NCBI GenBank assembly: GCA_963758525.1
Contig: CAVWVQ010000003.1
Location: 3,328,001-3,392,000 of the forward strand
Direction of reading: 5' to 3'
DNA length: 64,000 bases
From: an uncultured Phycisphaerales bacterium
Lineage (GTDB): Bacteria > Planctomycetota > Phycisphaerae > Tepidisphaerales > Tepidisphaeraceae
Both the position numbers and the translations under genes were made by a program. Numbering within the stretch: the first letter of the stretch is position 1; every line of letters starts with the position of its first letter. The notes beneath the pieces are model-generated. The model had not been told where the DNA came from and made no database searches. It saw only the letters and a list, made by a program, of their open reading frames with translations. This document shows, in pieces, positions 26 through 2,798 of this stretch.

Positions 26-91
26 TTATCCACCGGTTTCTCCACCGGGCAAAGGCTGTCTGTGCCAATGGTTGCGTTTCACGGTGGATAA
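26..91. promoter_or_regulatory. Cluster of DnaA-box-like 9-mers
   Basis: TTATCCACC (26-34), TTCTCCACC (38-46) and inverted GGTGGATAA (83-91); 1-2 mismatches to TTATCCACA. Confidence 0.35.
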
Positions 92-116: not shown

Positions 117-145
117 TTGGTGAAATCGCCAAGTTGGCTTAAATT
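117..145 (+). promoter_or_regulatory. Putative sigma70 promoter upstream of the structured RNA candidate
   Basis: TTGGTG (117-122), 17-nt spacer, TAAATT (140-145); predicted start ~151-152. Confidence 0.35.
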
Positions 146-151
146 CCTCCC

Positions 152-800
152 GTCGTCGGACGCGACAGCGGCCGGCGGAAAGGGAGAATGCTCCTGATAC
201 GGAGTCTGGCTTCCGAACAGTCCGTGCGCAGCAATGAATCGCGGGCACGGCGGAATCCAGCGGCCAGCGACAAGGCCACCCGAAACTAATGGGCGAGGAA
301 AACGTCCCTTTGGCCATCCGGGTTAATGTCGCCGCCAGTGGTCGGACGCACCGCGGGGAGAGAGTCCCTCGTCATGCGCCCGATCGAACCCAGGCTTCCC
401 GAGCAGCCCGGTAACGGGCTGCGGAGAGCAGCTGATCCTAGGAATGGGTTCGGGACAGCGAAATCCCACGGCCCTCCAGTCGGGAAACCGCTCTGCCGCC
501 CTGTTGGGCGAGCGATCGCGGCGGTGACAGTCGCGATCAACCGTCTGTATGCAGCATCCCCATAGATCTGCTGCATGCTGATAGGACCGAGGCGGGCCCA
601 GGCCGGGAGCAGATGGTCACAATATCGGTCCGATACCGGCATAGGCCCCTGCGGTGAGTTCGCGACTCACTTCTGGGGCCTTCCGGCTTTGATGGGGAAG
701 CTCGAAGCGCCGGCGCGGGGGGAGCGCAATTTATCGATGAGCGCACGAAGCCGCGCCAGCACAGAGCCGAGCGACTTGTCGCCGGACCCGCAGCGTGTTG
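152..800 (+). ncRNA. Candidate large structured non-coding RNA (~640 nt), family not recognised
   Basis: No credible ORF; dense nested hairpins (222-250, 385-452, 403-422, 481-490, 497-510, 514-538, 549-576, 644-680, 712-757), GNRA loops (GUAA, GAAA), 5'/3' closing helix 160-178/779-796. Confidence 0.6.
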
Positions 801-899: not shown

Positions 900-2798
900 G
901 TGAGCGCGGAAGAACCGAATGCACCCGGCGAACAAAATGTTCGCGCGGCTTCGACCAATGACGGGCTTCCCATCTCCCCATCGCTGGGGCCGACGTTGGC
1001 TGATGCGCACTTGCCGGCGGTGTACAACCCGCTCGACGCGCGGGTGCTGTTCATCTCCGCCCTGTGCATCCTGATCGGGCTGGCGGCGGGACTGCTCTCG
1101 CAAGTGCTGATCCGCACCATCTGGCTGATCACCAGCCTCTCGTTTTACGGCCGGTTTTCCATGAGGCATGTGACGCCGCCGCAGACGATGGCGGCGAATC
1201 ACCTGGGTTTGTGGATCATTCTGGTGCCCATAGCGGGAGCGATTCTCATCGGTCTGCTCGCCCGATACGGCTCTCGGCAGGTGGCCGGTCATGGAATTCC
1301 CGAAGCGATGGAACAGGTGCTTCTCAACCAGAGCCGCATCCCGCCAAAGATGACGTTCCTCAAGCCGCTCTCGGCGGCCATTTCCATCGGCACTGGCGGC
1401 CCGTTTGGCGCGGAGGGACCGATCATCGCGACCGGCGGAGCGCTGGGATCGCTCATCGGGCAGTTGCTGCACACGACTCCCTCCGAACGCAAGGTGCTGC
1501 TCGCCGCCGGCGCCGCTGCGGGAATCGCGGCGGCATTCGGATGCCCCGTCGCGGCGGTGCTCCTGGCGATCGAACTGCTCCTCTTTGAATTCAGTCCGCG
1601 ATCGATCATCCCGGTTGCGATGGCGTGCGCCACTGCCTCGGTGGTTCACTATCGCTTCGAAGGATTCGAGCCATTCTTCACCCTCGACGGCGGAACGTTT
1701 GCGCCGGCAAACTATCCTCAGCTTGCCGCGTGGACCGTTCTCGGCGCGATCATGGGCGTCGCAGCCGTAATAATGACGCAGAGCGTCTACCTCGTGGAAC
1801 ATCTTTTTGAACGCATTCCGTGCCATTGGATGTGGCACCCGGCGCTGGGGGCGGTGGCGGTTGGCGCCATTGGCTGCATCGCCCCTTTCACGCTCGGCTC
1901 CGGATACTTCAACATCGATCACCTGCTGAGCGGCAGTCTTGCCCTCCGCGCGGCCGCGCTTCTGCTCCTCCTCAAATTCCTCTCGTGGACTATCTCGCTG
2001 GGCAGCGGCACCGCCGGCGGCACGCTCGCCCCCGTCTTCACAATCGGCGGATCGTTGGGGGCGGTCCTCGCGCTGATCGCGCATCGCGTCGATCCAGGCA
2101 TCGTGCTGGATGTTCGGGTTGCCGCGCTCGTGGGGATGGTGGCGATCTTTGCCGGGGCGTCGCGTGCCATGCTCACTTGCGTCGTCTTCGCGTTTGAAAC
2201 CACGATGCAGCCCTGGGGAGTGTTGCCGGCGCTGTGCGGTTGTGCGGCGTCGTATCTGGTGGCAACGCTGATTTCCCGAACGTCCATCATGAGCGAGAAG
2301 ATGCATCGCCAGGGCGTCCGAGTGCCCGTGGAATATCGAGCCGACATTCTGGCGCAGGTGCTGGTGCGCGACGCCTGCACACTGGGGCCGGTGATCCTTC
2401 AGGGGGACCAGTCGGTAGCTGCCGCGCGTGCCTGGCTCAACTCCGATTCAGCAGCGGCCAGACACCAAGGCTTCCCCGTCGTGAACCAGCGGGGCGACCT
2501 GATCGGCGTTGTGACACGCCGGGACGTAACCAACCCGCGCCTCGCCGAAACCGCGACAGTGGGAACTGTCCCCACGCGACTGCCGGTGGTGGTATACGAC
2601 GACTCCACGCTGCGGGATGCGATTGATCACATGATTCAACACGATATTGGGCGACTGCCAGTCGTCTTCCGCGAGGGCCTCAAGCTCGCCGGCATCATCA
2701 CGCGAGGTGATATTCTCACGTATTACGGCCGCTGGCAGGCGGACGAACGTCGTTCGCGACGAAGCATCCTCGTCCCGCGGCAACGTTCTAAGCCGTAG
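900..2798 (+). CDS. ClC-family chloride channel/H+:Cl- antiporter with C-terminal CBS pair
   Basis: ClC motifs GHGIPE, GGPFGAEGP, GTAGGTLAP; many TM helices; CBS-like FPVV..G.LIGVVTRRD and GIITRGDI. Confidence 0.92.
   Translation: MSAEEPNAPGEQNVRAASTNDGLPISPSLGPTLADAHLPAVYNPLDARVLFISALCILIGLAAGLLSQVLIRTIWLITSLSFYGRFSMRHVTPPQTMAANHLGLWIILVPIAGAILIGLLARYGSRQVAGHGIPEAMEQVLLNQSRIPPKMTFLKPLSAAISIGTGGPFGAEGPIIATGGALGSLIGQLLHTTPSERKVLLAAGAAAGIAAAFGCPVAAVLLAIELLLFEFSPRSIIPVAMACATASVVHYRFEGFEPFFTLDGGTFAPANYPQLAAWTVLGAIMGVAAVIMTQSVYLVEHLFERIPCHWMWHPALGAVAVGAIGCIAPFTLGSGYFNIDHLLSGSLALRAAALLLLLKFLSWTISLGSGTAGGTLAPVFTIGGSLGAVLALIAHRVDPGIVLDVRVAALVGMVAIFAGASRAMLTCVVFAFETTMQPWGVLPALCGCAASYLVATLISRTSIMSEKMHRQGVRVPVEYRADILAQVLVRDACTLGPVILQGDQSVAAARAWLNSDSAAARHQGFPVVNQRGDLIGVVTRRDVTNPRLAETATVGTVPTRLPVVVYDDSTLRDAIDHMIQHDIGRLPVVFREGLKLAGIITRGDILTYYGRWQADERRSRRSILVPRQRSKP

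Follow-up and report, generated by a model that had tools for sequence, protein, structure and literature searches.

OLE, ROOL and GOLLD are among the handful of giant RNAs described in bacteria and are the closest counterparts of the RNA characterized here. OLE (577–578 nt) acts apart from the flanking mRNA, is found mainly in extremophiles and binds Oap proteins; in the accessible text of PMC12286853, it is described as a symmetric kissing-loop dimer, with a palindrome that changes from GGCC to GAUC or AGCU. ROOL (about 580 nt) contains several multistem junctions and three pseudoknots and resides near tRNAs or in prophages. GOLLD is associated with phages and tRNAs, has a variable 5' region and, as far as the accessible text describes it, forms a cage the half-shells of which are joined by two self-interacting kissing loops (B8 and B9). 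Two other RNAs are relevant for comparison, namely the class A RNase P RNA (RF00010), a single-copy chromosomal RNA with a conserved pseudoknotted core and variable peripheral insertions, and ARRPOF, a 255-nt multi-pseudoknot homodimer from a Fusobacterium plasmid with a suggested link to replication (PMC12990946, accessible part).

The window analysed here is a 64,000-nt stretch of DNA (positions 3328001–3392000 of contig C3 in the host genome, G000). It carries, at 152–690 on the plus strand, the gene for a large ornate noncoding RNA (539 nt here, with the ends placed by conservation). The homologues are 524–1,012 nt long (median 599 nt in 83 full-length homologues), and peripheral insertions account for the variation. 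This RNA resembles OLE, ROOL and GOLLD in size, complexity and self-kissing signature but fails to match their models. With OLE, it shares the approximate length and a similar palindrome signature, here at two sites; it differs in that it belongs to soil Tepidisphaeraceae, contains three long-range helices that cross one another, is preceded by DnaA-box-like sites and has identified neighbours that are unrelated. The likeness to ROOL, in length and in the number of crossing helices, is one of complexity level and does not imply homology: a tRNA is present in only 1 of 124 loci of the new RNA (median 1.8 kb), the nearest tRNA genes of G000 are about 29 and 45 kb away, and the 168 highly conserved positions of the new RNA within one family, compared to 10 such nucleotides in ROOL across three phyla, are not a like-for-like count. 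Elsewhere in G000, there is a dense tRNA array (C3:3764011–3766477) and a group of five overlapping tRNA-Ser calls (C3:4444824–4445528). Length variants above 800 nt are reminiscent of GOLLD, but the new RNA is conserved in both halves and varies in the peripheral arms. Unlike RNase P RNA, it is dispensable and has a different order of helices; unlike the plasmid-borne ARRPOF, it has no match in Rfam or among plasmids.

A search of Rfam 15 matches no family to the window or to 12 homologue loci and returns chance hits only (best 17 bits). For OLE (RF01071), there is no match at E ≤ 10 (556 nt) or, in the 12 homologue loci, at E ≤ 1; a search of G000 with this model, which had no responding positive control, is negative as well, and so is the single-family search with ROOL (RF03087), likewise without a responding positive control. 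The conserved 3' domain of GOLLD (RF02032) has no match either, also in a single-family search. The preliminary description of this DNA saw no signature of RNase P RNA, tmRNA, 6S RNA or group I and II introns, and the Rfam search agrees. The true RNase P RNA gene is located at C3:4269428–4269938 (254 bits, with no cross-match by either profile) and is expanded to 511 nt; the cell's tmRNA is at C3:4321607 and the SRP RNA at C3:237038 (70.5 bits). The 6S model (RF00013) matches neither the locus nor any other part of G000, and 6S RNA is a rod of about 190 nt with a central bubble, as opposed to the branched architecture of about 540 nt. The group II intron models give no Rfam match, and the RNA lies between its own −10 box and a U tract, not within a gene.

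No description of this RNA was found in the accessible full-text literature, and the accessible main text of five papers (PMC5737381, PMC11109978, PMC8632094, 10.64898/2026.10.21.760802 and 10.64898/2026.09.22.753630) does not mention planctomycetes. Given that this survey covers freely accessible main texts, and that a database of 5.14 million intergenic clusters (10.64898/2026.10.21.760802, accessible part) may contain the RNA unnamed, its undescribed status is likely but not proven. Thus, it is probably a new, undescribed class of large ornate bacterial noncoding RNA; the earlier proposal of a new class in planctomycetes stands with respect to Rfam but has to be narrowed to Tepidisphaeraceae alone among the genomes searched. 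Each new class of giant RNA is a candidate ribozyme or RNA machine, and this one turns up in soil RNA libraries of many studies yet is missing from Rfam. Unlike ROOL and GOLLD, it is chromosomal, it follows the host genus, and a candidate regulator exists; this would offer a first handle on its physiology.

Limits, strand and expression of the RNA

Conservation sets in at G152 and ends at a U tract near position 690. The 3' boundary had been placed at 800, but positions 691–800 have no BLAST match across 123 homologue loci, and a stem drawn at 712–757 falls outside the RNA. The pairing of 160–178 with 779–796, by which the ends of the molecule had been joined, is favourable on paper (−27.6 kcal/mol) but coincidental, because its 3' partner belongs to a genome-wide repeat unrelated to the RNA: a REP-like element of 40 bp (746–790, no strand assigned) that is absent from the homologue loci and has 31 further copies in G000, many of them in inverted pairs 40–120 bp apart. 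A closing helix does exist; it is formed by 190–195 and 605–610.

Upstream, a −10-like hexamer (140–145, plus strand) reads TAAATT here and TATATT in 58 of 88 homologues; the pattern TANNNT precedes the RNA in 84 of the 88 and starts 13 nt upstream of G152 in 74. Of the promoter earlier assigned to 117–145, the −10 hexamer is conserved and the −35 part is not; a promoter scanner called no sites in positions 1–1500 of the window. At the other end, the 3' terminal stem (635–638/684–687 and 644–680, plus strand), followed by the U tract up to position 690, is likely to be the terminator and 3' end. In 96 of 99 homologues, TTT appears no more than 9 nt beyond the last stem; a simple scanner did not call a terminator.

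Length differences that break the reading frame are present in all 95 complete homologues, and 542 of all 628 length differences are not multiples of three. Within helices, G-U pairs (1,190) far exceed A-C pairs (142), which fixes the plus strand. The gene is flanked by a divergent AMMECR1-domain gene and by a co-directional gene for a ClC-family chloride channel with CBS domains (900–2798, plus strand), which adjoins the RNA in this locus only. A scan of 40 loci, which took in 150 of 163 candidate ORFs and left three further loci out, identified a downstream gene at 31; 19 are convergent and 12 co-directional, and they represent 19 families, ClC not being one of them. Because the downstream genes vary and often are convergent, the RNA is not a leader, in agreement with the preliminary description, which had noted a separate TTGACA ahead of the ClC gene; together with the repeat, this sequence indeed sits between the RNA and ClC. 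The segment that starts with it (841–898) has an 81%-identical 58-nt copy at G000:C3:2744788–2744845 and appears to be a shared promoter or leader element.

Part of the stretch is present in 20 of the 22 RNA runs listed, from 17 studies; these runs were picked because they contain the stretch, and contigs only were used. Sixteen runs with a small word share, X5 and X6 excepted, were left out of the evidence, and six runs were compared. In all four RNA runs of the first set (3 studies), contigs extend over 151–700; the zero coverage outside the RNA in this set was not used because the flanks are not conserved. In one study, all four runs contain 97%-identical contigs that cover 279–630/649 at a depth of 27–100, and the other 13 kb, rplT and rpmI included, is represented in the same four runs by short pieces only, at a depth of at most 3.1. 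Several contigs from the metagenome collection consist almost only of the RNA or of the RNA joined to rRNA, as expected, judging from their anatomy, of an abundant RNA in RNA libraries. The RNA thus has a conserved structure, is noncoding, is encoded on the plus strand with a −10 box of its own and a 3' stem with a U tract, and is found in RNA libraries. The suggestion that this is a stand-alone RNA of the OLE/ROOL/GOLLD size agrees with the homologues, covariation, −10 box, terminal stem, variable neighbours and RNA-library coverage, and we regard a structured, stand-alone noncoding RNA as virtually certain.

A knotted core and two palindromic loops

The case for a structured RNA is carried by covariation, not by folding energy. 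Among 31 genomic homologues, 98.0% of the 4,145 cells of a 134-pair structure can pair, compared to only 34–44% in slid controls; 69 of the 134 pairs show two-sided changes vs 30±3 in shuffles (0 of 500 shuffles reached 69). This score leans to the favourable side because the structure was drawn from the same sequences. A larger set consists of 124 homologues (<95% identity) drawn from 166 distinct sequences after removal of fragments, near-duplicates, two misassembled-looking copies and one sequence with Ns. Across these 124, about 25 helices are supported by compensatory changes, and all 21 pairs with E < 1 are located inside the proposed helices, with only 8 pairs reaching E ≤ 0.05, under a home-made parsimony-tree null and not R-scape. 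The structure is supported independently by the 97%-identical relative seen in four RNA runs: of the 10 sites at which it differs, six make up three compensatory pairs (344/381, 387/450 and 405/420). The folding z-score of 152–800, −5.0 on the plus strand and −3.6 on the minus strand, is low; for 152–690, the values are −3.1 and −3.6, respectively, and a score of −3.1 or less is also seen in 3 of 25 windows drawn at random from the genome. Folding energy is weak proof because it is not strand-specific and is matched by random windows.

The strings quoted in the preliminary description are all found at the positions given there, and the stems 385–391/446–452, 403–422, 497–510, 514–538, 549–576 and 644–680 are borne out by compensatory changes. 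All elements of the RNA described in this section are on the plus strand. The 5' hairpin P1 (153–178; 153–159/172–178 and 161–163/168–170) has a GNRA-type tetraloop and is 96–97% paired, with 69 two-sided cells. The core is closed by the long-range strand a, 190–195, which is 96.6% paired with 605–610 and has 18 two-sided cells, as opposed to 84% only for the local alternative 190/205. The P3/P4 arm (206–261; 206–214/252–260 and 222–227/245–250) is 97% and 100% paired and is followed by a domain (262–332) that comprises P5 (267–271/328–332), P6 (278–282/319–323) and P7, with an insertion site after 271. A possible local pseudoknot in this domain, 262–265/274–277, is always pairable (262/277 in 100%) and shows a single two-sided change, which makes it a weak candidate. 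Strand d (312–318) pairs with 612–618; its pairs at 313–318 are 96–100% paired, at least 19 independent swaps in this helix can be placed on the tree, and two of its pairs, 317:613 and 318:612, rank within the top 8 for covariation.

The P8/P9 arm (341–384) has a GAGAG-type, T-loop-like loop (355–359/365–369). It is followed by P10 (385–452), which is supported by compensatory changes and encloses the variable P11/P12 arm (403–422) and a palindromic bulge, and by the most conserved part, the 3' core (453–604), with P14, P15 (470–473/601–604), P16 (482–484/597–599 and 488–491/592–595), P17, P18 and P19; large insertions occur after 455. A hairpin CGG-GAAA-CCG earlier drawn at 481–490 shows no two-sided changes in 124 homologues and is disfavoured because the pairing of 488–491 with 592–595 is better supported: the pair 488:595 is formed in each of the 119 homologues scored and shows 4 two-sided changes. 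Pseudoknot e (584–590/625–631, within 584–631) crosses P15, P16, a and d and is 99.6% paired, with 43 two-sided cells and at least 19 swaps. Thus, three long-range helices that show compensatory changes in the 124 homologues, 190–195/605–610, 313–318/612–617 and 584–590/625–631, cross one another, and four long-range strands follow in close succession within 601–631, the pairing 470–473/601–604 being among them. Longer homologues have extra stem-loops after 271, in the P8–P12 arms, after 455 and near 640. Several segments without variation have candidate pairings, namely 333–335 with 458–460 or 260–262, 481–483 with 541–543, and 477–479 with 578–580.

Two palindromes are of particular interest with respect to self-association. 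Palindrome 1 (436–443, plus strand; UCCUAGGA) is too tight to form a hairpin; its core, CCUAGG (437–442), lies in the unpaired bulge, and its self-duplex has an energy of −11.8 kcal/mol. Palindrome 2, UCGCGA (660–665, plus strand), is the loop of the 3' stem. In 157 sequences, the core of palindrome 1 is CCUAGG (148), CCAUGG (2), UCUAGA (2), CCUCGAGG (2) or one of three imperfect forms (CCUGGG, CCCAGGG and CCUAAGG; one gapped variant is left out of the count); in 130 sequences, palindrome 2 is UCGCGA (127), UCUAGA (1), UGGCCA (1) or UCGCGCGA (1), all palindromic. Altogether, 9 of the 12 variant sequences at the two sites are perfect palindromes, and the other three are largely self-complementary, although the changes that keep a palindrome go back to about 7 events only. 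Elsewhere, among conserved unpaired hexamers, the commonest variant usually is a single substitution; palindrome 2 has none. In the accessible text of PMC12286853, variation from palindrome to palindrome marks the inter-chain kissing loops of OLE (B3) and GOLLD (B8), and interactions of ROOL and GOLLD that had been predicted by covariation proved to be inter-chain. Given that neither CCUAGG nor UCGCGA can pair within one chain, both are predicted to pair between chains, palindrome 1 as an inter-chain pairing site and palindrome 2 as a symmetric kissing loop, so that the RNA likely associates with copies of itself. How common multimer formation is among large natural RNAs is an open question in the accessible text of PMC12286853, and the new RNA tests it directly because two specific symmetric contacts are predicted and natural compensatory variants exist. 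These palindromes, the pseudoknots and the DnaA-box-like cassette described below were missed in the earlier reading.

DnaA-box-like sites and distribution in the family

Three DnaA-box-like sites precede the RNA gene. Site 1 (26–34, plus strand; TTATCCACC) has one mismatch to the Escherichia coli box TTATCCACA and lies about 126 nt upstream; site 2 (38–46, plus strand) has two mismatches and is TTCTCCACC here and most commonly TTATGCACC in homologues; site 3 (83–91, minus strand), about 69 nt upstream, is inverted, with TTATCCACC on the minus strand (one mismatch), and has this same sequence in 56 of 84 homologues. All three are 9-mers within two mismatches of the E. coli consensus, the definition of a box in the accessible part of PMC4285127, and their fixed distances recur across homologues. 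Of 84 homologues, 70 have both outer boxes within two mismatches and 66 have all three, vs 1 in 20,000 random positions; most of the boxes end in C, not A, and boxes are missing in three homologues (L003, L056 and L094). The box pair is present in 42 of 56 RNA-bearing vs 5 of 85 RNA-lacking genomes. Because the cassette travels with the RNA although the upstream genes differ, it belongs to the RNA gene. Judging from the spacing and recurrence of the boxes, it appears reasonably likely that DnaA controls this gene; another factor could use the box-like sites. The two dnaA genes of G000 (C5:186905 and C2:422360) are both on contigs other than that of the RNA, and no full box was found ahead of either. 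The DNA-binding domain encoded by the C5 gene contains the canonical DnaA motif DHTTV, and that encoded by the C2 gene contains NHSTV. Clusters of DnaA-box-like sites also occur apart from the RNA (G008:C116:7001–7068; G000:C3:1888692, 3579020 and 3808745; C4:138629) and represent a possible DnaA regulon or origin.

The homologue search that had been proposed as a check did find relatives: of 140 other Tepidisphaeraceae genomes, 55 carry the RNA by a covariance model of the 3' core and 57 by BLAST, two of the 57 as short matches only. With the covariance model, 24 of the 72 high-quality family genomes, G000 included, carry the RNA. About 60% of the family genomes, near-complete ones among them, have no match; the absence looks real in part because five well-assembled family genomes yield nothing above 20.2 bits, and fragmented assemblies may conceal further copies. 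Matches in the family score at least 98 bits, one fragmentary match excepted; outside the family, the maximum is 25.6 bits in 130 other genomes of the class, 149 of the phylum and 121 of a sister phylum. This sister phylum is that of a Verrucomicrobia-titled record, and the RNA was found in none of its 121 genomes. Candidate distant homologues, 45 short BLAST hits in 400 genomes of the phylum, were rejected, as none of the 29 loci checked could be extended.

In the species-wide genome collection, 45 of 65 pattern matches are real by profile HMM, and the other 20 are chance matches or too short. Forty-four of the 45 are titled Tepidisphaeraceae, Tepidisphaerales, Phycisphaerales, Phycisphaerae, Planctomycetota, Humisphaera or Fontivita pretiosa; the 45th, the full-length L176, is titled Bacillota but is not counted as a second phylum because it is letter-identical over 500 nt to a copy from family f1. 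Among the 119 matches listed in the metagenome scan, 104 are real, and 15 are chance matches or too short. The carriers include a named strain with a complete genome, Fontivita pretiosa B-254 (L148). The RNA is independent of neighbouring genes and, in the genomes searched, lineage-restricted. In the RNA tree, sequences cluster by host genus for 7 of the 8 genera with several members, a pattern suggestive of vertical descent with losses. One unpublished genome, G004, is a single unit in the family tallies, one row in alignments A1 and A2 and in the palindrome counts, and one locus in the DnaA-box and upstream-neighbour sets; it is excluded from the 124-sequence set, and no conclusion hangs on it. 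One genome, G082 (contamination 4%), has three copies of the RNA (L094, L096 and L099), two of them near-identical and preceded by boxes and the third divergent, short (524 nt) and without boxes.

Candidate functions

On balance, we lean towards a reading in which DnaA sets the supply of a noncoding RNA that forms a dimer or cage by pairing with itself and acts as a scaffold or sponge. Under this scheme, DnaA bound at the three upstream boxes would set transcription from the −10 box and thus tie the supply of the RNA to replication or growth state. The 540-nt RNA would fold into a knotted core with the variable arms outside, and its CCUAGG and UCGCGA loops would pair with the same loops of other copies. 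If both contacts were made with one partner, the result would be an OLE-like dimer; contacts with different partners, or one of the long-range 'pseudoknots' made in trans (as are B4 of ROOL and B7 of GOLLD), would yield a ring or cage, with the variable insertions at the periphery. As an abundant scaffold or sponge, the assembly could assist soil cells in moving between growth and stress, and would be useful but not essential; the scaffold role itself is tentative. A bolder version, namely a chromosomal DnaA-controlled RNA nanocage of planctomycetes, the first of its kind, made in pace with the initiation of replication and closed into a shell by the self-kissing loops and trans pseudoknots, with a conserved core for chemistry or cargo, seems unlikely.

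A new ribozyme or ligand-binding RNA, with a core that acts in trans as a monomer or incidental dimer, is rather improbable. RNase P RNA has a constant core with variable peripheral arms, and the new RNA follows this pattern; furthermore, the three crossing helices converge on 601–631, and conservation reaches at least 97% in 168 of 553 columns, including many unpaired ones (UCCAG at 475–479, GCGA at 458–461 and CGC at 333–335), although this figure is inflated because it was measured within one family (mean identity 72%). On the other hand, no RNase P or group I/II family of Rfam matches, the RNA interrupts no gene, and a pure monomer would leave the two kept palindromes unexplained. Less probable still is an OLE-like ribonucleoprotein with dedicated protein partners, possibly the divergent AMMECR1-domain protein. 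The AMMECR1 gene is the commonest upstream neighbour (a cluster of 38 loci) and is present in 48 of 56 RNA-bearing vs 27 of 85 RNA-lacking genomes, but this association is confounded by kinship, and the gene often is unlinked. As an obligate partner, AMMECR1 is unsupported: of two single-contig genomes, G093 has the RNA and no match to the protein, and G034 has the protein and not the RNA. Both of these possibilities can overlap with the self-pairing, DnaA-set RNA favoured here.

It is highly doubtful that the boxes are an origin or a device for DnaA titration, with the RNA acting in cis as a primer, R-loop or origin helper. In favour of this, G000 has no pair of TTATCCACC sites within 300 bp other than the one at the RNA gene, the spacing between boxes and RNA is fixed, and ARRPOF, also a multi-pseudoknot dimer, is implicated in plasmid replication (PMC12990946, accessible part). 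Nevertheless, there are three boxes only, an AT-rich unwinding element is not evident by eye near them, the GC skew along contig C3 lacks a clear switch and is uninformative on oriC, the dnaA genes are on other contigs, RNA-lacking genomes mostly lack the cassette, and three homologues have no boxes. A selfish or domesticated mobile element (an ORF-less group II intron of the HYER type, a MITE or a phage RNA) is largely refuted and very improbable: the patchy distribution, the three copies in G082, one of them divergent and without boxes, and the size close to that of HYER1 (637 nt) would fit, but the RNA is single-copy in 53 of 56 carrier genomes, has its own promoter and terminal stem, follows the host genus in its tree, and has no group II match and no real match in viral contigs, phages or plasmids. 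Finally, a 5' leader or riboswitch of ClC, or a protein-coding region, as might be suggested by the position upstream of ClC on the same strand and by a 118-codon ORF at 286–642 on the minus strand, is refuted by the downstream genes and the length differences; the repeat and separate TTGACA that intervene before ClC also speak against it.

Apart from this RNA, two other sequences without an Rfam match were noticed in apparently chimeric contigs in which they are joined to it. One consists of short repeated hairpin-like units (L245:716–1170 in the oriented contig). The other is a second, different large conserved sequence (at least 550 nt) with no match in G000, in viral contigs or in 201 genomes belonging to another phylum; it is located at L270:590–1150(−), L252:557–1150(+), L276:620–1142(−), L261:5–473(−), L222:4–120(+) and in parts of L288 and L309. 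With its signs of covarying stems and an invariant GCATGC palindrome, it is possibly another undescribed abundant RNA.
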